Positions 9,975 to 28,049 of a stretch of DNA of 64,000 bases are shown piece by piece. Each line of letters starts with the position of its first letter. Position 1 is the stretch's first letter. A model generated the notes under the pieces. It was given only the letters and a program-made list of their open reading frames with translations. It did no database searches and had not been told where the DNA came from. The stretch is from an uncultured Clostridia bacterium (GTDB taxonomy: Bacteria > Bacillota > Clostridia > TANB77 > CAG-508). Both the position numbers and the translations under genes were made by a program. Location of the stretch: NCBI GenBank assembly GCA_934132805.1, contig CAKPAB010000001.1:197-64196 (forward strand), read 5' to 3'.

Positions 9975-10976
9975 TTATCCCATATTTATTTTTTCTTTTA
10001 AGTCATTTTTTTGTACATTATCTCCAATTTCTTCTTTAACAATATACTTTGGTCTTTGTTTAATTTCCAAATACATTTTTGAAATATATTCAGATAATAT
10101 ACCAATAGAAACTAATTGAATACCTCCAATAAACAATACCGCAGTTATAGTAGATGCATATCCAGGAACAGCTTTTCCCTTAGCTATAGTTTCTATAACA
10201 ATTGCAATTCCTAAAATAATTGCTAAAAAAGAAATAATAAAACCAAGTACAATTGATATTTTAAGTGGTGCTATTGTAAAAGAAGTAATACCATCTATTG
10301 CATATTTAAATAATTTACTAAAATTCCATTTTGATTCTCCTGCAACTCTTGGTCTATTTTCAACCTCAATATATTTAACATTATAGCCTACCCAATTAAA
10401 AATACCTTTAGAAAATCTGTTGTACTCTTTTAATGAAAGTATTGATTCAGCCACTTGTCTTTTCATCATCCTATAATCTTGTGAGCCTTGCCTAATCTTC
10501 ACAGAGCCAACGTTTCCCATTATTCCATAAAACATTTTGGCAAACATACTTCTTATTACAGATTCACCTTTTCTATTTCTACATGTAGTAACAATATCAT
10601 ATCCTTCTTCTATTCCTTTTATCATTTGCAATATAATTTCAGGGTCGTTTTGTAAATCTGCATCCATTATTACAACATATTCACCAGTAAAATTTTCCAA
10701 GCCTGCATACATAGCTGCTTCTTTGCCAAAATTTCTTGAAAAAGATATTACTCTAACATTTTTATCTTTTTGATTCAAACCTTTCAATTTTTGTAAAGTA
10801 TTATCTGCACTTCCATCATCTATGAATAACATTTCATAGTCATATTTTTCAATTAGTTTATTTATTGTTTTCATAGTTTCTTCATAAAATTTTTCAATTC
10901 CTTCGCCTTCATTATAACATGGCACTACTAATGAGATTTTTTCTTTCATTTTTATCCTTTTCCTTTGCTTTTCCAT
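9975..10976 (-). CDS. GT2 polyprenol-phosphate glycosyltransferase (GtrB/CsbB/DPM1-like)
   Basis: N-terminal GT-A fold (VVPCYNE...FIDDGSADNT...DADLQNDP) followed by 2 C-terminal TM helices. Confidence 0.8.
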   Translation of the reverse strand: MEKQRKRIKMKEKISLVVPCYNEGEGIEKFYEETMKTINKLIEKYDYEMLFIDDGSADNTLQKLKGLNQKDKNVRVISFSRNFGKEAAMYAGLENFTGEYVVIMDADLQNDPEIILQMIKGIEEGYDIVTTCRNRKGESVIRSMFAKMFYGIMGNVGSVKIRQGSQDYRMMKRQVAESILSLKEYNRFSKGIFNWVGYNVKYIEVENRPRVAGESKWNFSKLFKYAIDGITSFTIAPLKISIVLGFIISFLAIILGIAIVIETIAKGKAVPGYASTITAVLFIGGIQLVSIGILSEYISKMYLEIKQRPKYIVKEEIGDNVQKNDLKEKINMG

Positions 10977-10996: not shown

Positions 10997-11410
10997 TTAT
11001 TTTTTAAAAGCAAAAAATTTGCTTATAAAAAAGTTCAAAAATACTATTATTATATTTACTATAATTTTGCTTACTATTGCTGGAATTGCAGTTTTGAATA
11101 ACAACATACATCCAAAAAATTCAACAGCCATCGTTGCGGCTCTTCCAGCTATAAATTTTATAAACTCATAAAAATTTTCTTTAAACCCTTTAGCTTCTGT
11201 ATGGAAAACCCATTTTCTATTAGTAAAATAAGCAAATATAATTGCTAAAGGTATGGCTACAAGATTTGAAATATTTTCATCTACATGTATTAAACTATTT
11301 AAAATATAAAATGTAACTAAATTTACAAGTGTTGTTAATACTCCAAATATTATATATAATATAACATCTCTATTTAATACTTTTTTCATCAGTTCTTTTA
11401 ACTTGTCCAT
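10997..11410 (-). CDS. GtrA family protein (putative lipid-linked sugar flippase)
   Basis: 137 aa with 4 TM helices and the FxxNRxWVF motif (YFTNRKWVF). Lies immediately upstream of the GtrB-like gene. Confidence 0.75.
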   Translation of the reverse strand: MDKLKELMKKVLNRDVILYIIFGVLTTLVNLVTFYILNSLIHVDENISNLVAIPLAIIFAYFTNRKWVFHTEAKGFKENFYEFIKFIAGRAATMAVEFFGCMLLFKTAIPAIVSKIIVNIIIVFLNFFISKFFAFKK

Positions 11411-12127
11411 CTATTTTTCCTCCATATTTAGTAATATTGTTTCTAAAATATCTATATTGGAAATCTTCTGCTTTGAATTAGTAGTAATCTCCAATATTAA
11501 ATTGTTTTCATTTTTATACATTTCCATTATTTGATTTGGATCCATTCTTTCAAATGGATATTCTACTATTTCACCTGATAAGTCATCTCTAACATAACAA
11601 GTTCCAGAAATGTCAATTATATATAACTTGTCAGTTTTCAAAATTTCTTTTAGCTGATTTGCCTTTTCACTATTTTCTTCTCTTTCTTCATATACATATC
11701 CATTTTCATCTATTAAAAAATTAGTCAATTTATTATCATCTAGTATTTTTCTAAATTGTTCTCTAGATTTTTTTGAAACCCATATACCAGAATTGGTTGG
11801 TCTTTCTTCTAAAATTTTATTAATTTCAGCTTCAGTAGGAACACTTTCTTTCAGAATACCAGCCAATACAGTGTCAAACTGTATATTCGGTTTTATTTGT
11901 ATCGAGTGTCTTCCATCATATTCGTCTTCTACCTGATATATGTTTGTATCAGCTGTACTATTTATTTCATTTTTTATCTGGTTAATTATATTTTTATCAT
12001 ATTCATTGGTTTCATTTATAGTATTTTCTGTTTTCTTTTTATTAGTAAAAATTTTTCCAGTTAATATAGAAATTAATATTACTAATATTATAATTAATAT
12101 AGTTACATACAATTTTTTCTTATTCAT
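11411..12127 (-). CDS. Hypothetical membrane-anchored extracytoplasmic protein
   Basis: N-terminal signal-anchor (LYVTILIIILVILISILTG) followed by a charged, soluble domain with no recognised motifs. Confidence 0.4.
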   Translation of the reverse strand: MNKKKLYVTILIIILVILISILTGKIFTNKKKTENTINETNEYDKNIINQIKNEINSTADTNIYQVEDEYDGRHSIQIKPNIQFDTVLAGILKESVPTEAEINKILEERPTNSGIWVSKKSREQFRKILDDNKLTNFLIDENGYVYEEREENSEKANQLKEILKTDKLYIIDISGTCYVRDDLSGEIVEYPFERMDPNQIMEMYKNENNLILEITTNSKQKISNIDILETILLNMEEK

Positions 12128-12140
12128 TTTCCATTTCCTT

Positions 12141-15137
12141 TTATATTTCTCTCAATAATTGCATAGTAGCATTTATAAATTTTTGTGCATAATTTCTATT
12201 TAATGTTTGAGTATGACTATTTACTTCTGGAAGTTCTACTAAAGATGCACGTGCATTATTTAGCGACATTCTAGCCCAATTATCTAAATAGCCTCTTCCA
12301 TAAGAATATATATGATTGTTGTTTGAAATTCCAAAAGCATTTCTATAGTATCTACCTAATTCATAGTCTCCTATAGTTTCATTTAGCCATCCATGTGTAT
12401 CTATCAACACATTTTTACTACCTTGTTTTTTTAATAAAAAGTCTCTTAAATACCTTGCCTCATATGCTTGGAAGCCTGATGTTCCATTATAATTTCTACT
12501 GTCCTTATATGTTATATAGCTTTCTCCACTTGTAGACCAATTTCTATTCATATCAATTCCTTTGTTTCCAGGAGCTGCACTATATAATGTTGTCCTACCT
12601 GGTCCATTATTTGTCCAGCCATATTGTTGACCATCTGGATTCAAATTAGGAAAAATATATATTGTCCAACTATTTACTATATTTTCAGATATATTATTTT
12701 GTAAATAATTTTTAAATTCATTAGCAATATATGTCAACTCTGCTCCGTCATTATTATATGAATCTTCAAAACCATGTATTGAAAATGTCGTAAATAATAC
12801 TTTACTACCTTTTCCAATTTTATAGTATTTTAAATCTGTACCTCGCCAATCACCTTTTATTGCTAAACCAGATTTTCCATAACTTCCTTCTTCATAGAAT
12901 TTCCTAAAGCCTAATACAAATCTAAATTTTTGTGCATCTGTATAATTTATTTTAAAAGTTTGAACATTTTGTCCATTTCTACTAACTCCATTGTCAATAT
13001 CTATAGCTAAGCCATTTGCTTTTGAAATTATATTATAATATCCATTTCCGCATTCTTTTATTATCCATTTTTGATTGTCATTTCCCAAATACTCTGATTG
13101 ATATACATTATTTGTTGAAATGTCTACAGTTATCGCTTTATTTGATTTTTTAGATATAATTTTATATGTATCTGTAGATAATGCTTCAAATTTAAATCTT
13201 TGTTGCTCTACATTATCAGCATTCCAAATTTGAATATTTGCTCCAGACTGTATTGAGCCATCATAAACATCTAAAACCTTGTTGTAGTCTAGTTTTGTTT
13301 CTACCTCATATGTATCATTTTCTATTATGTTTATAGGTTGTAACTTAAATTTTTGTGCATCAGTTCCATTATTGTAATATAATTGAACATTTGCTCCATT
13401 CTCATTAACCTTTCCTGATTGTATATCTAGCACTAGACCATTTGCCTTTGAAATTATATTATAATATCCATTTCCACAATCTTTAAAATACCAATATTGA
13501 TTATCAGTAGAATTTGGAGTATATTGTTGAATATTTGTTCCTAATTTTTTCTCTCCCCATTGAACATCTAGTGCCTTTGCAGATTTTACAGATGTCACTT
13601 GATAATAATTTGTGTCTTTAATTTTTGTTATACGGAATTTCTGTTGTTGCACTTTATCATTTCCCCAAATTTGCACATTCGCACTATCATCACATGAGCC
13701 ATTCCAAATATCTAATACTTTATTGCTCATTGTTGCTATTTGATATATTCCATCTGCAATTTGAGATATATTTTCTTTTGGTGTTTCATTTATAAGCATA
13801 AAAATTTGATTATTTAAATCTGTTTCATACTTTAGTTCTAATGATGTTCCATTATATTCTAAATATAATTCTCCACATTTTGAAATTATAGAATACTTAC
13901 TCTCTCCTGATTTTTTTAATATCCATTTTTGTGTTTCTAATTCTTGGTCTTCTTGTTTTAAAATTACGCTTCCAGCTCTTGGAGTACTGCTCTCAACTGT
14001 TAATAGTTTCCCGTCATTCTTAGATTTTATCTTATAATATCCATCAGAAATATAACTTATCTCAAATTTATCATTTTCTACTAAATTATTTATATTATCT
14101 AAGCTATACATTCTATATAAACCATCTTCAGCTGATTGTGTAGCCTTTTCTTTTTGACATAATTCAAATGTGAATTTTTGTGCATTTGAGCCGTTAAAAT
14201 GATATGTTTGTAAATTTGTTCCAATTTTATTACTAGCATTTTCTACATCTAACAATAAACCATTAGATTTAGACATAATTGAATATGTATTATCCTCATT
14301 TTTCAGTAATATCCATCTTTGAGCATTTGTGTTATTAGAATTATATTGTTGCACTTTAGTTCCATTTCTTCTAGATCCATTTTGTACATCTAGAACTTTT
14401 GAAGAGTGTAATACTGTTATTGTATAAGTTCCGTCTGTATTATATGAAAGCTTAAATTTTTGATTTGCTTTATTATTAGGTGTAGCAATTTTTAATATAG
14501 CTTGACTGTTAATATCACTATTTGGAATTTCTAATACTCTATTATCTCCTATTTTAGAATAAATATTATATATTCCTTCTTCTAATGTTTTATTTGCTTT
14601 TCTTTCTTTAACTTCTAATAATTTGAATTTTTGTGCATTAGTTCCATTTCCTGCGTAAACTTGAATATTTTGTCCATTATTCCCCAAACCTGAAGCAATA
14701 TCTAAATATAGTCCATTCAATTTTGAAATAATATTATAATATCCATCTCCACATGATTTTAATATCCATTTTTGAGCATCTGTGTTATTACTATTATATT
14801 GCCATACATTAGCCCCAGAATATTTTGCTCCATCTTGAACATCTAAAACTTTATTAGAATGTGATGCAATAATTGTATATGTACCATCATCATTCAAAAC
14901 AAATTTAAATTTCTGTTGTGGCACATCATCTCTTTCATATATTTGAACATTTGCACAAACATTTAAGCTTGCATCCACTATATCTATTGTTTTAGTATCA
15001 CTAACTCCTGTATATATTTCATAAATGCCATTTTTGATATTTGCACTATCTGATGTAGCAATAGACTTAGTAGGTAAAATTGTTAAACTACATACAAAAA
15101 TTGCTAATATTACTATAATACAAAACCTTTTTTTCAA
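12141..15137 (-). CDS. Secreted multi-domain protein: signal peptide, five ricin-B (beta-trefoil) lectin domains and a C-terminal M14 zinc carboxypeptidase domain (gamma-D-glutamyl-diamino-acid peptidase-like)
   Basis: Signal peptide MKKRFCIIVILAIFVCSLT. Five QxW-type repeats (DAQKWIL, NAQRWIL, AQKFKL). The C-terminus carries M14 motifs (IFPNLNPDG, DMNRNW, IDTHGW). Confidence 0.75.
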   Translation of the reverse strand: MKKRFCIIVILAIFVCSLTILPTKSIATSDSANIKNGIYEIYTGVSDTKTIDIVDASLNVCANVQIYERDDVPQQKFKFVLNDDGTYTIIASHSNKVLDVQDGAKYSGANVWQYNSNNTDAQKWILKSCGDGYYNIISKLNGLYLDIASGLGNNGQNIQVYAGNGTNAQKFKLLEVKERKANKTLEEGIYNIYSKIGDNRVLEIPNSDINSQAILKIATPNNKANQKFKLSYNTDGTYTITVLHSSKVLDVQNGSRRNGTKVQQYNSNNTNAQRWILLKNEDNTYSIMSKSNGLLLDVENASNKIGTNLQTYHFNGSNAQKFTFELCQKEKATQSAEDGLYRMYSLDNINNLVENDKFEISYISDGYYKIKSKNDGKLLTVESSTPRAGSVILKQEDQELETQKWILKKSGESKYSIISKCGELYLEYNGTSLELKYETDLNNQIFMLINETPKENISQIADGIYQIATMSNKVLDIWNGSCDDSANVQIWGNDKVQQQKFRITKIKDTNYYQVTSVKSAKALDVQWGEKKLGTNIQQYTPNSTDNQYWYFKDCGNGYYNIISKANGLVLDIQSGKVNENGANVQLYYNNGTDAQKFKLQPINIIENDTYEVETKLDYNKVLDVYDGSIQSGANIQIWNADNVEQQRFKFEALSTDTYKIISKKSNKAITVDISTNNVYQSEYLGNDNQKWIIKECGNGYYNIISKANGLAIDIDNGVSRNGQNVQTFKINYTDAQKFRFVLGFRKFYEEGSYGKSGLAIKGDWRGTDLKYYKIGKGSKVLFTTFSIHGFEDSYNNDGAELTYIANEFKNYLQNNISENIVNSWTIYIFPNLNPDGQQYGWTNNGPGRTTLYSAAPGNKGIDMNRNWSTSGESYITYKDSRNYNGTSGFQAYEARYLRDFLLKKQGSKNVLIDTHGWLNETIGDYELGRYYRNAFGISNNNHIYSYGRGYLDNWARMSLNNARASLVELPEVNSHTQTLNRNYAQKFINATMQLLREI

Positions 15138-15169: not shown

Positions 15170-16117
15170 CTATTTTTCATTCATTTCTTTTTCATCATTA
15201 TACTCATTTACTAAATACAATGGTCTATTTTTGGTTTCATTAAATATTCTTCCTAAATATTCTCCTACTATTCCAAACAATAAAATTTGAATTCCAGAGA
15301 AGAATAATATCAATAATATTATAGCCTGAAAAGCTTGTATGGCTTCATGTATAATACAACTCTTTGCTATAACATATACAAAATATACAAATAAAACTAA
15401 AAATGTAGGAATTGAAATATAAGTAGATAGCCTTAATGGTGATGTTGTAAATGATGTTATTCCATCTATCGCTAAATCTATTAGTTTTATATAGTTCCAT
15501 TTAGTTGTTCCTGCTACTCTTGGGTCTCTATCATAAAGTACTTCTTTCTTTTTATACCCTATCCAACTAAACATACTTTTTGTGTTTCTTTCTGATTCTC
15601 TAATTTTTCTTAGTGCATTAACACATCTTCTATCTAATAATCTAAAGTCTCCAGTATCTTTTTGTATTTCTATTCTAGTTGTTTTTTGTAATACTTTATA
15701 ATACATTTTTGAAGTGAATTTTTTTAGCCATGTTTCTCCTTTTCTTGAACGTCTTTTAGCGTATACATCATCATAGCCTTCTTCCCAATATTTTACAAGC
15801 TCTGGTATCAATTCTGGTGGATCTTGCAAATCTGCATCCATAAATATCACACAATCACCTGTTGCATAGTCTAGACCTGCTATCATTGCTATTTCTTTTC
15901 CAAAGTTTCTTGAAAAATCTACATAACTAATTCTTTTGTCTTTTTCTCTTAATTCTTTTATTATACTTATTGTTTTGTCTTTGCTACCATCATTTACAAA
16001 TAAAATTTCAAAGTCATAGTTTTTCATGCCTTTCATCAATTTGTCCAATCTTTCGTATAAAAATGGTAATGATTCTTCCTCATTATATGCAGGAATTATA
16101 ATAGTTATTTTTTTCAT
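15170..16117 (-). CDS. GT2 polyprenol-phosphate glycosyltransferase (second GtrB/CsbB-like paralog)
   Basis: IIPAYNEEE...FVNDGSKDKT...DADLQDPP followed by C-terminal TM helices. Confidence 0.8.
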   Translation of the reverse strand: MKKITIIIPAYNEEESLPFLYERLDKLMKGMKNYDFEILFVNDGSKDKTISIIKELREKDKRISYVDFSRNFGKEIAMIAGLDYATGDCVIFMDADLQDPPELIPELVKYWEEGYDDVYAKRRSRKGETWLKKFTSKMYYKVLQKTTRIEIQKDTGDFRLLDRRCVNALRKIRESERNTKSMFSWIGYKKKEVLYDRDPRVAGTTKWNYIKLIDLAIDGITSFTTSPLRLSTYISIPTFLVLFVYFVYVIAKSCIIHEAIQAFQAIILLILFFSGIQILLFGIVGEYLGRIFNETKNRPLYLVNEYNDEKEMNEK

Positions 16118-16195: not shown

Positions 16196-17932
16196 TTAAT
16201 ACGTAAAGAAATATCCTTCTCTTTCATTCTCTATTTCATCTTTTATAGTATAATTTTTAACTCCTAGATCATCCAAAGTATATAATGCTCCCTGTACTCC
16301 ACTATGATTTAATTTTATTTCAACATTGTCTGTTGACCTATAATAATCTAAAAATTCATTTAATCTATTGCCTATATATTGGTCACTTGCTTTTGTCTTT
16401 TTAACATTTGCATATAAAACTATACATGTATTTGTAAACATTATAATTGCAATTATTATTCCTATAATAAATTCCACTTTTTTATTTTTATCCCACAATA
16501 AATATGCAAGTGATAATATTGGAACAGCATAAAAATATGGTATATATCTAGCCCAATAATTTCCATCTAAGGCTAATATTAAAACTGCTGTAATTCCTAA
16601 TATTAATAAATATGGTATTAACAAATTCCAATTTTTGTTTTTTATTAATCTAACTACAATATAAATAGTAGCTATCATTGATATAATGAATATTCCACTA
16701 AACAATGGTCCAAAACCGCCTACTCTAATATCTGGTATAGAATAATTTGATATTTCACCATCCATTATTGTAAATGGTATTTTTAATGTAGGTTGTACAT
16801 TTTCACTAGAATAAGATGGAGATACATTTTCACCTTTTGAAAACATTGATATTAAAAAGATTTGTAAATGGTTTTTATCACTAAATGATGTAGGTTGTTC
16901 TTTTAATACCATGTTATCAACATGTCCTTTTCCTGATAGTGGATATAATGGATGTCCATGGTCTATTGTGTTTCTTGTATATGATGAGAAACCAACAATA
17001 CCAATAGCTACCACAACAGTAATTATATAAAATACTGTATATTTTTTTAAGTCTTTTAAAAATTGTTCTTTGCCTTGTTTAAATGCTTTTATTAACCAAT
17101 ATACATAAAATACAAAACAGAATATTCCTGCAAAAGCAAGTCCTGTAAATTTTATATTTATACATAATATTATATTACATGCTAATAATAATAAATTTTC
17201 TTTTTGGTTTTCGTTTGTTCTAGTACTTTGAACAATTAAACTATATATTATAAGCAAAGTAGTTATTAATAATGCTCCATCAACATAATAATTGAATATT
17301 TGTACTGCAGTTATAGCATTAAACGGTACTAATATTGCTATTGCTAAACTTGTAAATAAGTTTCTCTTTTTGTCTTTGTATAAGTATGAAAACAATATTC
17401 CAAATGCTACATACATAAGTATAATTGTATATCCTTTTCCTGTTTCAATATTACCTGTAAATGCATATATAACCGCTGCATATATTTCTGTTCCTTTAGC
17501 ATAATGGTCTATCCATAATGTATTTATGTTTTCCTCTGAAGTATCAAAAGGATTTCCATTTTCTTTATTTCTGTCTTTGCTGTCTTCATAATTTGGGTTC
17601 CACCCATTTTTTAAACTTCCTATTGCTAATTTATGGTAAGTATTTCCATCTGCTGTTGAGTCATATATTTTTCCCTCTATTAATGTTGTTACAGATAATA
17701 TTATTAGACCTATAACTATAGCAGTAGAATTTATTTTTATATCATCTTTTTTGTAAAATAATAATGTTACAATTATTGAAATTATTGTTATTATTGGTAA
17801 ATGAAACTTGGAAATAGTTACACCTACAAAAAACAATAATGTTGTTATTACTAATATTAATGTTATTTCTATTAATAGAAATATTGACGATTTTTTTATT
17901 ATATTAGTTACTTTGTCCATTTTTAACCTCAT
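16196..17932 (-). CDS. Large polytopic membrane protein, putative GT-C-type glycosyltransferase partnered with the adjacent GtrB-like enzyme
   Basis: 578 aa with at least 12 TM helices and a C-terminal soluble domain. Its position next to a polyprenol-P-sugar synthase matches three-component extracytoplasmic glycosylation systems. No family was firmly recognised. Confidence 0.45.
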   Translation of the reverse strand: MRLKMDKVTNIIKKSSIFLLIEITLILVITTLLFFVGVTISKFHLPIITIISIIVTLLFYKKDDIKINSTAIVIGLIILSVTTLIEGKIYDSTADGNTYHKLAIGSLKNGWNPNYEDSKDRNKENGNPFDTSEENINTLWIDHYAKGTEIYAAVIYAFTGNIETGKGYTIILMYVAFGILFSYLYKDKKRNLFTSLAIAILVPFNAITAVQIFNYYVDGALLITTLLIIYSLIVQSTRTNENQKENLLLLACNIILCINIKFTGLAFAGIFCFVFYVYWLIKAFKQGKEQFLKDLKKYTVFYIITVVVAIGIVGFSSYTRNTIDHGHPLYPLSGKGHVDNMVLKEQPTSFSDKNHLQIFLISMFSKGENVSPSYSSENVQPTLKIPFTIMDGEISNYSIPDIRVGGFGPLFSGIFIISMIATIYIVVRLIKNKNWNLLIPYLLILGITAVLILALDGNYWARYIPYFYAVPILSLAYLLWDKNKKVEFIIGIIIAIIMFTNTCIVLYANVKKTKASDQYIGNRLNEFLDYYRSTDNVEIKLNHSGVQGALYTLDDLGVKNYTIKDEIENEREGYFFTY

Positions 17933-24475: not shown

Positions 24476-25126
24476 TTATTTTTTATGTTTTGCTTTCTTT
24501 TTTCCTGTAAAAATTTTTATTATAACTATTAAAACAATGACTGCTACTACTATTCCTATAATTTCTTTATTATTTGAATCTATTTTTTTATTCTCTTCTT
24601 GATTTTCTATTTCATTAATTATAGTTTTATCTGTAAGAGTTGTTTGCATATCGTTTGCGGTAGAATTTTCATCTGTATTTGTATCTACACTAGAGCTATC
24701 ACTTTGTGTTATTTTTATTATATATGTCCTAACTGTTCCAGATTCTGCTGCAACATCAATTCTATATTCATTTTGATTTTTATTTATTTTTATATTTCCA
24801 GTTCCTGTTACAGTTGCCTTGCTGTCATCTGCTATTGCTTTTATATTGATTTCACTTTCTTTTACTTCCTTATTCAAAGTATATTCTAGGGTTTGCTTAT
24901 CAAATTCAGGTGATAATTCATATCCTTCCACACTTAAACTTGACAAATAATTATTATTTGATTTTAATGTATCAAATTTCTTATTTTGTTCTTGTTCCAT
25001 TTTTTCTGTTTGATTTCTTGCATCACCATCAGTAAAGTCAGCAAAACTTCCATATACATTATAAAAGTTTATATAAAAAGTTGTTGTTATACAAAATACA
25101 ATTAAAAATTTTATAATTTTTTTCAT
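24476..25126 (-). CDS. Small surface protein with a signal peptide, a cadherin-like beta-sandwich domain and a C-terminal TM anchor
   Basis: N-terminal signal, then LSSLSVEGYELSPEFDKQTLEYTL...ATVTG (PF12733-like), then a C-terminal hydrophobic helix with KKKAKHKK stop-transfer. Confidence 0.5.
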   Translation of the reverse strand: MKKIIKFLIVFCITTTFYINFYNVYGSFADFTDGDARNQTEKMEQEQNKKFDTLKSNNNYLSSLSVEGYELSPEFDKQTLEYTLNKEVKESEINIKAIADDSKATVTGTGNIKINKNQNEYRIDVAAESGTVRTYIIKITQSDSSSVDTNTDENSTANDMQTTLTDKTIINEIENQEENKKIDSNNKEIIGIVVAVIVLIVIIKIFTGKKKAKHKK

Positions 25127-25202: not shown

Positions 25203-28049
25203 TTATTTCAAGTATTTTATAGGCATAAATGCCTGTCTACCATCTGATAATTGAATTCTGCACCAATCATATCCATCTATATTATTATATCTTCCTTTAT
25301 CAATTACCCTTACCTCTGTTCCATCTGATAATGCCGTTATTTGGTCTAAGTAGATACTTGGTCCTACTCTTATTTTACAACCACTTCCGTCATTTGTTTT
25401 AACTTTTGCAGTATAATAACAATTTGTAACATCATTAACAACACTCAAATATGTTCCTGACATATAACCTATTACTCCATCCTCAGTTATTACTTTTTGC
25501 CAATTGCTATTAATTCCCCTCTGCACTGATAAAATAACAGTTCCTTGTGGTATTAATCTTAATTGTTTAGAACTTGTATTTGCACTTTCTCTTAAATACA
25601 ATCCACCATTTGCAGTAACCTTTACATTAATTGGTGATATTTCTGAGTTATTTACTGGCATTGCATATGCTGTTGTATTCATTTTTTCATATACTGGTAT
25701 TATAAATGTAAAATTAGCATCTGTTTTTCCTGTATTAGCATACATTGATTTTAATGTTCTTGCTTCACTATATGCTCCCATTAAATTTTGCATATATTGA
25801 TGTTCATATAATGCTGTTCCATTTCGTGTATCTATATCAAATTTATTTTGATATAGTGTATTTTGATAATTTTCTAACCAGTTTCTTTTGCAGAAATCTA
25901 TTCCGCCTTCAATTGCTTTTTCCATTGTGTCCCAACCATAAGATTTAGCTGTAGCTAATGCATTTTTACATATCTCTGCCCATCCATTTCCTGATGCGCC
26001 TATGTTGAATGGATTATAGTATGTTTTTCCATCTCCTCCATCCATTCCTCTACCTATAATTGTACCTGAATTACCTTGTTCTTGTAACAATCTTGATACT
26101 ATGTAATATGAATTTACATTTTTATTTCTACATGCAGTATCTATATCATTAGCATAATTTTGTAAAAATGTACCACTCACTTTGCTTTTTACTCCTTCTA
26201 GAGAGCATACTCCATTTAAATAACTATTTAAATTTTGAAATTGGAATACATTAGTTTCGTCTAAGAAGTTTCTTGGGTCCATATAATATGCTATTGCTTT
26301 TTCTGATGCACAATACCATCCACTATCATACAAAGTTGTCCCACATACTGAGCATATCCATTCTCCACCATATGAAGTTGGTACTAAGTTTCTTGAATGT
26401 ACTTTATATTCTCCTGCAACAACATCATCAAATTTTAAACCTGTATATAATAATTCAAAATTCCAATTTGGATGTTTATCAATTAAATTTTGTATTTTTT
26501 CTTTATATCCAGGATATTTTGTCTCATCTATATTTATATTGTTTTTAGATTCAACAAAAACAAATCTTTGTGCTTTTGAGCCATTACCTGCATATACTTG
26601 TATATTTCTAGCATTACCTGCAATACCATCTTGAACATCTAAATATAAATCATTACACTTTGAAATAATAGAATATGTTCCATCTGTGTTTTTAGCAATT
26701 ATCCATTTTTGTGCATCTGTTCCATTTGAATCATATTGCCTTACATTAGTTCCAGATGTTTTTCCTCCATCAGCTACATCTAATGCTTTACCAGAATGCG
26801 CTGCTGTTATTGAATAATATCCATCTCCTAAATATTTAACTTTAAATCTTTGTTGTCCAACTATTGCATCTTGATATAATTGCAAATTAGCATAACTTTG
26901 TGTTGAGCCTCCTGCAATATCAAATACATATTGTGTATTTAAAGATGATTTTATTGTATATGTTCCATCTGATATTGTTTTTTCTGGCTTTGGTGTTTCA
27001 TTTTTGTCTGGTGTACTACTTGAAACATTTTCAAACTCAAATTTTTGTGCTTTTGTTCCATTTCCAGCATACATCTGTATATTTTTTCCATTGCCAGCAC
27101 TTCCGCCTTGTACGTCTATGTATAAACCATTATGTTTTGAAATAATAGAATATGTTCCATCGCTGTTTTTAGCAATTATCCATTTTTGTGCATCTGTTCC
27201 ATTTGATTTAAATTGTTGTACATTTGTTCCTGATTCTTTTCCACCATTTGCTACATCTAATGATTTGTCAGAATGTTCTGCAAATATAGAATAATATCCA
27301 TCTCCTAAGTATTTAACCTTAAATCTTTGTTGCCATACATTTGAATTTTGATATAATTGTATATTGGCATAATTTTCTTTTGACCCGTCTACAACATCAA
27401 AAACATATTTAGTATTTAAAGATGATTTTATTGTATATGTTCCATCAGATAACGTCTTTTCTGGTTTTACTGTTTCATTTTTGTCTGGTGTACTATTTGA
27501 AATATTTTCAAATACAAATTTTTGTGCTTTTGTTCCATTTCCAGCATACATTTGTATATTTCTTCCATTTCCAGCTTTGCCATCTTGTACATCTATATAT
27601 AAACCATTACACTTTGAAACAATAGAGTACGTTCCATCATTGTTTTTAGCAATTATCCATTTTTGTGCATCTGTTCCATTTGAAGCATATTGTCTTACAT
27701 TAGTTCCTGATGTTTTTCCTCCATCAGCTACGTCTAATGACTTGTTAGAATGTACCGCAAATATAGAATAATATCCATCTCCTAGATATGTAATTTGGAA
27801 TTTTTGTTGCCATACATTTGCATTTTGATATAGCTGTAAATTTGCATAACTTTCTTTTGAGCCATCTACTATGTCAAATACATATTTTGTGTCTAGTGCT
27901 GATTTTATTACATATGTTCCATTTTCTAATGTTTTTGTGTTTTCAACTGCCTTTGTTTCTTTTATATTAAATATAAAAAGTAGAATTAAAAAGGTAATTG
28001 AAATATATAATATTTTTTTGATTTTTTTCATATTTTCTCTTCCTTTCAT
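25203..28049 (-). CDS. Secreted protein: signal peptide, three tandem ricin-B lectin domains, a cell-wall hydrolase-like domain and two bacterial SH3 domains (autolysin/enterotoxin-like architecture)
   Basis: Three 159-aa near-identical repeats with QxW motifs (AQKWIIAKN). A C-terminal region contains cysteine and aromatic-rich motifs (YYMDPRNF, NPFNIGA). Two SH3b-like modules follow (GYMSGTYLS; DWCRIQLSDGRQAFMPIKYL). Confidence 0.65.
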   Translation of the reverse strand: MKGRENMKKIKKILYISITFLILLFIFNIKETKAVENTKTLENGTYVIKSALDTKYVFDIVDGSKESYANLQLYQNANVWQQKFQITYLGDGYYSIFAVHSNKSLDVADGGKTSGTNVRQYASNGTDAQKWIIAKNNDGTYSIVSKCNGLYIDVQDGKAGNGRNIQMYAGNGTKAQKFVFENISNSTPDKNETVKPEKTLSDGTYTIKSSLNTKYVFDVVDGSKENYANIQLYQNSNVWQQRFKVKYLGDGYYSIFAEHSDKSLDVANGGKESGTNVQQFKSNGTDAQKWIIAKNSDGTYSIISKHNGLYIDVQGGSAGNGKNIQMYAGNGTKAQKFEFENVSSSTPDKNETPKPEKTISDGTYTIKSSLNTQYVFDIAGGSTQSYANLQLYQDAIVGQQRFKVKYLGDGYYSITAAHSGKALDVADGGKTSGTNVRQYDSNGTDAQKWIIAKNTDGTYSIISKCNDLYLDVQDGIAGNARNIQVYAGNGSKAQRFVFVESKNNINIDETKYPGYKEKIQNLIDKHPNWNFELLYTGLKFDDVVAGEYKVHSRNLVPTSYGGEWICSVCGTTLYDSGWYCASEKAIAYYMDPRNFLDETNVFQFQNLNSYLNGVCSLEGVKSKVSGTFLQNYANDIDTACRNKNVNSYYIVSRLLQEQGNSGTIIGRGMDGGDGKTYYNPFNIGASGNGWAEICKNALATAKSYGWDTMEKAIEGGIDFCKRNWLENYQNTLYQNKFDIDTRNGTALYEHQYMQNLMGAYSEARTLKSMYANTGKTDANFTFIIPVYEKMNTTAYAMPVNNSEISPINVKVTANGGLYLRESANTSSKQLRLIPQGTVILSVQRGINSNWQKVITEDGVIGYMSGTYLSVVNDVTNCYYTAKVKTNDGSGCKIRVGPSIYLDQITALSDGTEVRVIDKGRYNNIDGYDWCRIQLSDGRQAFMPIKYLK
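26496..27929. repeat. Three tandem 477-bp direct repeats (about 85-90% identical) encoding the three lectin modules
   Basis: Opposite-strand spurious ORFs are duplicated with 477-bp periodicity (27004-27294 vs 27481-27771). The protein repeats are near-identical. Confidence 0.8.

Follow-up and report, generated by a model that had tools for sequence, protein, structure and literature searches.

What does a secreted zinc carboxypeptidase do behind a row of five sugar-binding domains, in the midst of genes that build a surface glycan, and what holds it in check? The question is raised by one open reading frame (ORF) at positions 12141 to 15137 of a 64,000-nucleotide stretch of contig CAKPAB010000001.1 (assembly GCA_934132805.1), from an uncultured Clostridia bacterium. 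This whole stretch is called the window here; all coordinates are window positions, and protein residues are numbered from the TTG start codon. The reading we favor, at a probability of roughly 55%, is that the ORF encodes a lectin-anchored carboxypeptidase that trims peptidoglycan under the control of a membrane-anchored partner protein. The features on which the argument turns are as follows.

12141 to 15137, minus strand: lectin-M14 ORF, 998 amino acids plus stop, with signal peptide, five ricin-B trefoils and M14 carboxypeptidase domain (ORF list, Pfam, TTG start with ribosome-binding site)
15057 to 15137, minus strand: predicted Sec signal peptide, residues 1-27, MKKRFCIIVILAIFVCSLTILPTKSIA before the cut and T after it (judged by eye from the sequence)
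14607 to 15041, minus strand: ricin-B trefoil 1, residues 33-177, three canonical lobes (Pfam and lobe check)
14154 to 14585, minus strand: ricin-B trefoil 2, residues 185-328, alpha lobe degenerate, beta and gamma lobes canonical (lobe check)
13773 to 14135, minus strand: ricin-B trefoil 3, residues 335-455, shortened, none of three sugar-site signatures kept (lobe check)
13329 to 13760, minus strand: ricin-B trefoil 4, residues 460-603, three canonical lobes (lobe check)
12906 to 13319, minus strand: ricin-B trefoil 5, residues 607-744, beta lobe degenerate (lobe check)
12144 to 12896, minus strand: M14 zinc carboxypeptidase domain, residues 748-998, with H788, E791 and H915 (zinc), R848, N864, R865, Y950 and E968
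11411 to 12127, minus strand: partner protein, 238 amino acids, an N-terminal membrane anchor followed by an extracytoplasmic domain of about 190 residues, new family (profile searches, model, conservation, fusions)

The gene begins with a TTG codon 9 nucleotides past a AAAGGGGG ribosome-binding site, and its product opens with a predicted Sec signal made up of KKR, a 15-residue hydrophobic core and a cut after residue 27, between SIA and T. Pfam recognizes RicinB_lectin_2 (PF14200, E 5.5e-112) in nine stretches of the protein and Ricin_B_lectin (PF00652, E 5.4e-42) in five. NCBIfam matches to the whole protein are confined to generic "lectin" subfamilies, and a megablast comparison of the gene with plasmids gives zero matches. 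By exact-sequence clusters the proteins do occur in public MAG (metagenome-assembled genome) data. A first-pass annotation of the window had described an exported protein of 998 residues with five QxW lectin domains and a C-terminal M14 domain; the ORF, the signal peptide and Pfam all agree with this description, with the qualification that trefoil 3 is degenerate.

Are the trefoils still fit to hold a sugar? A lobe was taken as canonical when it carries the Asp of an L-D-V/I motif, the stacking aromatic residue of an N-V/I-Q-x-Y/W motif, and QxW/F, with positions assigned by the residue numbering of ricin. Ten of the 15 lobes keep this signature; it is lost from the alpha lobe of trefoil 2, from the whole of trefoil 3, and from the beta lobe of trefoil 5. 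Three QxW/F lobes are found in each of four trefoils, and trefoil 3, which is probably a spacer, retains two, part of its alpha lobe being gone. The residue equivalent to Asn46 in the same numbering is mostly Ala or Gln. The first-pass annotation had made its case depend on the sugar-binding QxW geometry of the repeats, and because 10 of 15 lobes keep the canonical site, the geometry appears to be preserved and an objection on this ground fails.

The solved structures nearest to trefoil 1 are the designed protein ThreeFoil (3pg0, E 9e-25) and the CBM13 domain of the C. thermocellum exo-beta-1,3-galactanase Ct1,3Gal43A (3vsf, E 2e-13). These share the lobe signature of the window trefoils, and presumably belong to a galactose-type lineage. 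Both are single trefoils on or from glycoside hydrolases, whereas the lineage described here carries five to seven tandem trefoils on wall hydrolases. The kinship would suit another reading of the array, in which its ligands come from the host or the diet, such as the galactose and N-acetylgalactosamine (Gal/GalNAc) of mucin or plant galactan, and the protein serves as an adhesin-enzyme aimed at the gut environment. The origin of all relatives in gut metagenomes also favors such a role, and we return to it with the evidence from related genomes.

The catalytic domain presents a similar question of integrity. Its match to Peptidase_M14 (PF00246; E 4.1e-15, 56.6 bits where the cutoff is 21.6) covers only positions 66-184 of the 286 in the profile. 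Specifically, pairwise alignments place the zinc motif IHGFE (H788, E791) on His69 and Glu72 of carboxypeptidases B and A4, and DTHGW (H915) on their His196. Similarly, DMNRNW (N864, R865) falls on their Asn144-Arg145 motif (D-x-NRNF), whose residues bind the C-terminal carboxylate, and R848 stands at the Arg124/127 position. E968 lies in LVELP, where a modeled beta-strand ends, and is the equivalent of Glu270 as assigned by motif and position. Across an alignment of 54 family members H788, E791, R848, N864, H915 and E968 are invariant (E968 in 54 of 54), and at least 90% of the members share R865 and Y950. An AlphaFold model built from this alignment has a predicted local distance difference test score (pLDDT) of 96 and a predicted template modeling score of 0.93, and shows the M14 alpha/beta fold. 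The H-E-H zinc triad, on whose presence the first-pass annotation had also rested its case, is therefore complete and unvaried. Because the catalytic residues are invariant and the model is confident, the domain is read as an intact M14 carboxypeptidase, predicted to be active and lacking the pro-domain of M14A enzymes. The complete set of carboxylate-holding residues further suggests action on free C-termini.

If the enzyme is intact, then what does it cut? A profile built from the enzyme's own family reaches M14A enzymes (E 2e-9) more readily than MpaA (E 3e-5), and does not detect Csd4; peptidoglycan-active M14 enzymes are thus no nearer than digestive ones. In M14 enzymes the half of the domain beyond the second zinc histidine forms the specificity pocket. 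The corresponding C-terminal half here has no similarity to any solved M14 in the Protein Data Bank (PDB), where it gives chance matches to calpain only, so that homology offers no guide to the substrate. An NCBIfam search of the domain gave no match, and no M14C relative is present among its solved-structure matches.

These results divide the first-pass label of an "M14 gamma-D-Glu-diamino-acid peptidase-like" domain: the assignment to M14 is upheld by Pfam, by the residues and by the fold model, and the subfamily is not. Taken literally, the label would mean an M14C-type gamma-D-Glu-(L)-meso-diaminopimelate peptidase resembling ENP1 or YqgT, or cleavage between D-Glu and diaminopimelate as by MpaA or Csd4. 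Such a specificity is doubtful for an enzyme that is no closer to MpaA and Csd4 than to digestive carboxypeptidases and whose pocket-forming half is unlike that of any solved M14. Taken as a whole, the first-pass interpretation is partly supported.

Known enzymes of the family offer partial likenesses. MpaA, the murein tripeptide amidase of E. coli, serves in recycling and is soluble, with one domain only; Csd4 possesses accessory domains of its own. MpaA and the Csd4/Pgp1 enzymes of Helicobacter and Campylobacter are peptidoglycan-active M14 proteins to which the window enzyme is weakly similar at best, and they have neither lectin arrays nor the partner. Carboxypeptidase T and the M14A carboxypeptidases A and B are protein-digesting zymogens with an N-terminal pro-domain, whereas the window enzyme has no pro-domain, has an M14 domain about 50 residues shorter, differs entirely in the sequence of its pocket half, is fused to lectins, and is encoded in a wall locus. 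Endopeptidase I of Bacillus sphaericus (ENP1; MEROPS M14C) consists of LysM repeats and an M14 domain. It resembles the window protein in joining M14 to wall-binding repeats, although LysM binds peptidoglycan and the trefoils are proposed to be lectins for a secondary polymer.

The strongest rival to a role in the wall follows from these comparisons, because the nearest relatives of the domain are digestive enzymes: M14A and carboxypeptidase T in both sequence and fold. The protein might be a nutritional or peptide-processing carboxypeptidase, displayed at the surface by its lectins, that frees amino acids from peptides. The conserved residues for binding a free C-terminal carboxylate would serve such an enzyme well, no motif specific to peptidoglycan is found in the M14 domain, and the genome is probably small (the chromosome of a related MAG measures only 1.8 Mb). 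Already at the level of architecture there are points on the other side, namely the missing M14A pro-domain and the SH3b, SLH and ChW modules borne by relatives. The remaining evidence on this rival comes from the neighboring genes.

The partner encoded after the lectin-M14 gene has no Pfam or NCBIfam family and no sequence match to a solved structure, and its model (pLDDT 87) has no fold match in structure searches. Its 188 homologs in a protein search include none with a name, and even when 1.84 billion representative proteins were searched exhaustively with a profile, the family came to 243 clusters only. Related loci were sampled at one genome per species, the best 80 of 322 loci with a relative being taken, and domains were called by our own procedure. 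The partner gene is the most conserved neighbor of the M14 gene, occurring in 74 of 87 M14 loci. The gap between the two genes is at most 120 nucleotides in about 54 loci; in about 17 the partner gene lies 4-5 kb downstream, in several of them right after a second ricin-B hydrolase gene. The partner accompanies M14 whatever the N-terminal module, be it ricin-B, ChW or a region without Pfam match. The distant M14 genes of C. massiliamazoniense and of a Sarcina MAG have no adjoining partner.

The two domains also occur as one polypeptide. The globular part of the partner, stripped of its anchor, follows the M14 domain in ChW-M14-partner proteins (P0358, P0364, P0371), in RicinB-M14-partner proteins (P0385, P0395, P0409, P0428) and in a Big_7-M14-partner protein (P0382), and in P0419 it is placed before SH3b-M14. 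Similarly, two loci of species-representative MAGs (L042, L069) encode M14-partner fusions with linkers of about 20 residues and no membrane segment. Among standalone partners 71 of 75 have the N-terminal anchor. Conserved adjacency together with repeated, independent fusion argues strongly, at the level of sequence, that the M14 and partner domains may be functionally coupled.

A small, conserved, outward-facing partner encoded right after a secreted hydrolase could be explained in another manner. The M14 protein might be an antibacterial lysin that damages the walls of competitors, and the membrane-anchored partner the inhibitor that protects the producer. RHS-repeat proteins, which are typical of toxins, carry trefoils in two loci, as might be expected of such a system. 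Toxin-immunity pairs are polymorphic, whereas the arrangement seen here is the same in about 80 species, with M14 identities of 54-87% and mostly one M14 gene per locus. Moreover, the natural fusions would join toxin and immunity protein in a single chain, and the gene stands in a housekeeping wall operon. We consider this the most improbable of the explanations weighed here.

The genes on either side indicate what kind of locus this is. Its parts, together with a second lectin-bearing hydrolase called protein B, are listed below.

8375 to 36211, both strands as described below: wall-glycan locus with Wzx-like flippase, ABC-2 permease and ATPase (TagGH/RgpCD-like), YfhO, a 578-residue membrane protein, a GT2-GT4 glycosyltransferase fusion, seven further GT2 or GT4 glycosyltransferases and an O-antigen-ligase-like protein (Pfam)
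15170 to 16117, minus strand: GT2 with two C-terminal membrane helices, GtrB/CsbB-like polyprenol-phosphate sugar synthase, 32 nucleotides upstream of the M14 gene (Pfam, sequence)
10997 to 11410, minus strand: GtrA-family flippase-like protein, directly downstream of the partner gene (Pfam)
9975 to 10976, minus strand: GT2 after GtrA (Pfam)
25203 to 28049, minus strand: protein B, 948 amino acids, with signal peptide, three ricin-B trefoils, SagB-like GH73 N-acetylglucosaminidase and two SH3b domains (Pfam, PDB, NCBIfam)

From about 9.9 to 36.2 kb every gene lies on the minus strand, and the Wzx-like flippase gene lies on the opposite strand. Read downward from 36.2 kb, the order is GT4, GT2, O-antigen-ligase-like, GT4, GT2, GT2, GT4 and protein B, followed by a 216-residue protein, the ABC ATPase, the GT2-GT4 fusion, YfhO, the ABC-2 permease and the 578-residue membrane protein. 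The run is completed, down to 9.9 kb, by the GtrB/CsbB-like GT2, the M14 gene, the 238-residue partner, GtrA and GT2. The stop codon of the GtrB/CsbB-like GT2 gene precedes the M14 start by 32 nucleotides, the M14 stop precedes the partner start by 13, and the partner stop abuts the start codon of GtrA. A scan for promoters and terminators found sites no more frequently than in shuffled sequence of this AT-rich DNA, so that operon structure is inferred from gene spacing only. Because the flanking glycosyltransferase and GtrA genes are tightly spaced on the same strand, the M14 gene is embedded in an operon-like run of glycosylation genes, which is where the first-pass annotation had located it. 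This position inside a wall-glycan operon, and the co-conservation with a dedicated membrane-anchored partner, tell against a nutritional enzyme. The same genes are the organism's own wall-polymer genes, and as such they also tell against lectins directed at host or dietary glycans.

Protein B is a peptidoglycan hydrolase, by sequence, that bears ricin-B lectin as the M14 protein does. Its GH73 domain matches SagB in the PDB (6u0o) at E 1.2e-21 and the NCBIfam SagB model at E 4.8e-25, the latter match falling far below the cutoff of that model. Its three trefoils are nearly identical to one another, and in about 38 related loci a homolog of protein B is encoded beside the M14 protein.

Several other genes of the window deserve mention in their own right. 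The 216-residue protein encoded directly downstream of protein B (24476 to 25126, minus strand) has a weak match to a cadherin-like beta-sandwich (E 5e-4, under the Pfam cutoff) and homologs in 22 related loci. The 578-residue multi-pass membrane protein (16196 to 17932, minus strand), whose gene separates that of the ABC-2 permease from that of the GtrB-like GT2, has zero Pfam or NCBIfam matches; the related contig L003 encodes DUF2142 proteins in its place, and it could be an unrecognized wall-glycan transferase. At the edge of the glycan locus (36255 to 39889, minus strand) two tandem acetate kinase paralogs of 396 and 404 residues follow a phosphotransacetylase-family gene, and 14 related loci likewise have ack genes close to the M14 gene. 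The G+C content of the window is 22-33%, and ordinary chromosomal genes are present, among them the spoIIIA operon, uvrB, the two ack genes with pta, nrdD and addA. A P-type cation ATPase is split at 53978 to 56591 (minus strand) into a 679-residue ORF with the E1-E2 and hydrolase domains and a 214-residue ORF with the C-terminal domain, which overlap by 71 nucleotides; this suggests a frameshift, a pseudogene or an assembly error.

How general is the pairing of trefoils with wall enzymes? The M14 catalytic domain has 115 database relatives, nearly all of them unnamed metagenome proteins, in which M14 stands alone or is joined to ricin-B, ChW, SH3b or SLH. The best 80 of the 322 loci all derive from MAGs that belong to uncultured gut Clostridia, "Clostridium sp. 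28_17" and "CAG:354" among them, and the related loci contain 62 ORFs with M14 behind one to seven trefoils and about 20 with M14 behind an N-terminal region of roughly 400-800 residues that has no Pfam match. A homology search with a single trefoil returned 12 short fragments only and no architectures, and the ricin-B ORFs of the fetched loci were classified instead. Near the M14 genes there are 124 such ORFs in 83 loci: 62 carry M14, 38 GH73 (32 of these with SH3b), seven Amidase_3, four GH25 and two RHS repeats, and in the other 11, several of them at contig ends, nothing further was detected. Of the 42 loci whose 10-kb flanks are complete, 39 contain homologs of the glycan genes of the window (median 5), and two metagenome contigs likewise place trefoil hydrolases in a wall-glycan setting. 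By these ORF and flank counts, the trefoil array accompanies every major class of wall hydrolase in the wall-polymer locus of the lineage.

This distribution bears on two of the rivals at once. Wall-hydrolase-type domains (M14, GH73, Amidase_3 or GH25) are carried by 111 of the 124 ricin-B array proteins (~90%), which argues against a nutritional carboxypeptidase; together with the evidence from the locus, it leads us to regard that explanation as unlikely, even though it is the strongest of the alternatives. The amidase, glucosaminidase and muramidase domains that ride on the same arrays have bacterial walls as their substrates, which argues against lectins that face the host. A further point against the latter is that ChW, a wall-binding module, can take the place of the trefoils at the same position of the locus. 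In a relative with 49% identity, P0047, ChW repeats stand where the trefoils are, and the ChW-M14 protein is followed by a partner homolog (E 7e-65). Glycosyltransferase genes and the gene of a ChW protein come before ChW-M14 and the partner homolog; further glycosyltransferase genes and one for an O-antigen-ligase-like protein come after, and one more ChW protein is encoded close by. In one survey of wall hydrolases ChW figures among the modules that bind M14 domains to the wall (PMC6403190). Binding of host or dietary glycans therefore ranks as distinctly improbable, below the nutritional role.

Trefoils can also be compared across proteins. In 43 loci those on the M14 protein share 48.5% identity with those on the other ricin-B protein when both come from one genome, and 35.2% when they come from different genomes (Wilcoxon p 3e-9). 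The higher similarity within genomes fits a shared, species-specific ligand, as far as sequence comparison can tell.

Three further observations concern the reach of the trefoils and of their alternatives. First, the roughly 20 related species in which M14 and partner are kept and a Pfam-less N-terminus of about 400-800 residues replaces the trefoils (L045-L050, L053, L054, L064, L073, L078-L083; ORFs of 740-1040 residues) may possess a further, undescribed wall-binding module. Second, ricin-B arrays are fused to RHS-repeat proteins next to the M14 gene in L010 (5767 to 9804, 1345 residues) and L019 (11816 to 19030, 2404 residues), and the trefoils may therefore deliver toxin-like proteins as well. 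Third, IMG/VR contigs encode proteins of phage endolysin type with a C-terminal ricin-B trefoil, combined as NlpC/P60- or Amidase_5-like plus RicinB and as GH25 plus CHAP plus RicinB (L093 5572-6429; L108 4786-6432; L111 3797-4798). The G+C content of the contigs with endolysin-type proteins is 36-63%, and that of the phage contigs with related trefoils is 36-68%, compared with 26% in the lineage; they belong to other hosts, were therefore rejected as phages of this lineage, and serve as precedent only. The literature searched yielded no description of a ricin-B trefoil as an endolysin cell-wall-binding domain.

Several findings weigh against a partner-controlled, peptidoglycan-trimming enzyme anchored by the polymer of its own locus. 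By sequence and fold the catalytic domain is closest to digestive M14A enzymes and carboxypeptidase T, ahead of any peptidoglycan-active M14, and its pocket-forming half resembles no solved M14 at all. The partner is missing from three loci that have full downstream flanks. Gene conversion between neighboring genes could also produce the similarity of trefoils within genomes, and in the window itself the trefoils of the M14 protein and protein B are 42% identical, no higher than the best values between genomes. Finally, Gal/GalNAc is a common ricin-B ligand that host mucin also carries, and wall-binding modules elsewhere also display nutritional enzymes.

The reading of a lectin-anchored, partner-controlled peptidoglycan-trimming carboxypeptidase nonetheless draws directly on the architecture, the intact catalytic residues, the modeled M14 fold and the setting in a glycan locus, as well as on trefoils that wall hydrolases across the lineage have in common and on an M14 gene that adjoins, or is fused to, that of the partner. 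To these it adds a sugar ligand, a peptide substrate and a direction for the effect of the partner. In this proposal the Sec system would export the enzyme, and its hold on the wall would be non-covalent. Its array of five trefoils, with 10 or so intact sugar sites, would be the wall-targeting module of the lineage and would bind in a multivalent manner, most likely to the secondary cell-wall polysaccharide made and decorated by the products of the surrounding locus. The M14 domain most likely removes C-terminal residues from the stem peptides of peptidoglycan, a substrate suggested by context rather than by homology. The ectodomain of the partner, which a short tether would keep at the surface of the membrane, probably binds the M14 domain, and would either confine its activity to the newly made wall close to the membrane or keep the enzyme latent.

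Parts of this scheme have well-known counterparts, and the placement of wall hydrolases by a shared, non-covalent module linked to a wall polymer is itself an established principle. As in the CWB2/PSII system of C. difficile, the SLH modules with their pyruvylated polymer, the pneumococcal choline-binding proteins and the ChW proteins, one repeat module appears on many classes of hydrolase, and it is genetically linked to the synthesis of a secondary wall polymer (here in the 39 of 42 loci noted above). Unlike those systems, the module is a beta-trefoil of the ricin-B/CBM13 type, which is never mentioned in two surveys of wall-hydrolase architectures (PMC6403190, PMC8051824). The searchable literature contains no description of ricin-B as an anchor of wall hydrolases, nor of the M14-partner pair. 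What looks new is the lineage-wide use of a ricin-B trefoil array as a wall module and the seemingly obligatory partner domain of M14, which belongs to a new family.

The proposed control arrangement also has a precedent. In S. aureus the SagB-SpdC and LytH-ActH pairs each consist of a wall hydrolase and a dedicated membrane protein, SpdC and ActH being multi-pass proteins. By gene adjacency and fusion, the M14 enzyme of the window appears to be paired with a membrane-anchored protein as well, and the locus even holds a SagB-like GH73 enzyme. In contrast to SpdC and ActH, the partner crosses the membrane once, has a large domain outside, shows no detected homology to them, and is sometimes fused to the enzyme.

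Both lines of argument can be combined into a broader proposal, to which we give slightly less than even odds: that ricin-B arrays are the general wall-anchoring system of the lineage and read a lineage-specific secondary polysaccharide, and that M14 and its partner form a two-part, membrane-gated module for peptidoglycan trimming. What is known of how Gram-positive bacteria place and restrain the enzymes that cut their walls comes from a few cultured models. The findings indicate a further solution in abundant, uncultured gut Clostridia, in which an anchor of lectin type is combined with a wall polysaccharide encoded in the same locus. The new partner family offers a candidate regulator, open to testing, for the poorly studied wall-active M14 enzymes, and bacteria that have not yet been grown could be specifically probed or captured with the trefoil arrays. 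The sugar ligand of the trefoils would, in turn, define a surface structure visible to the immune system of the host.

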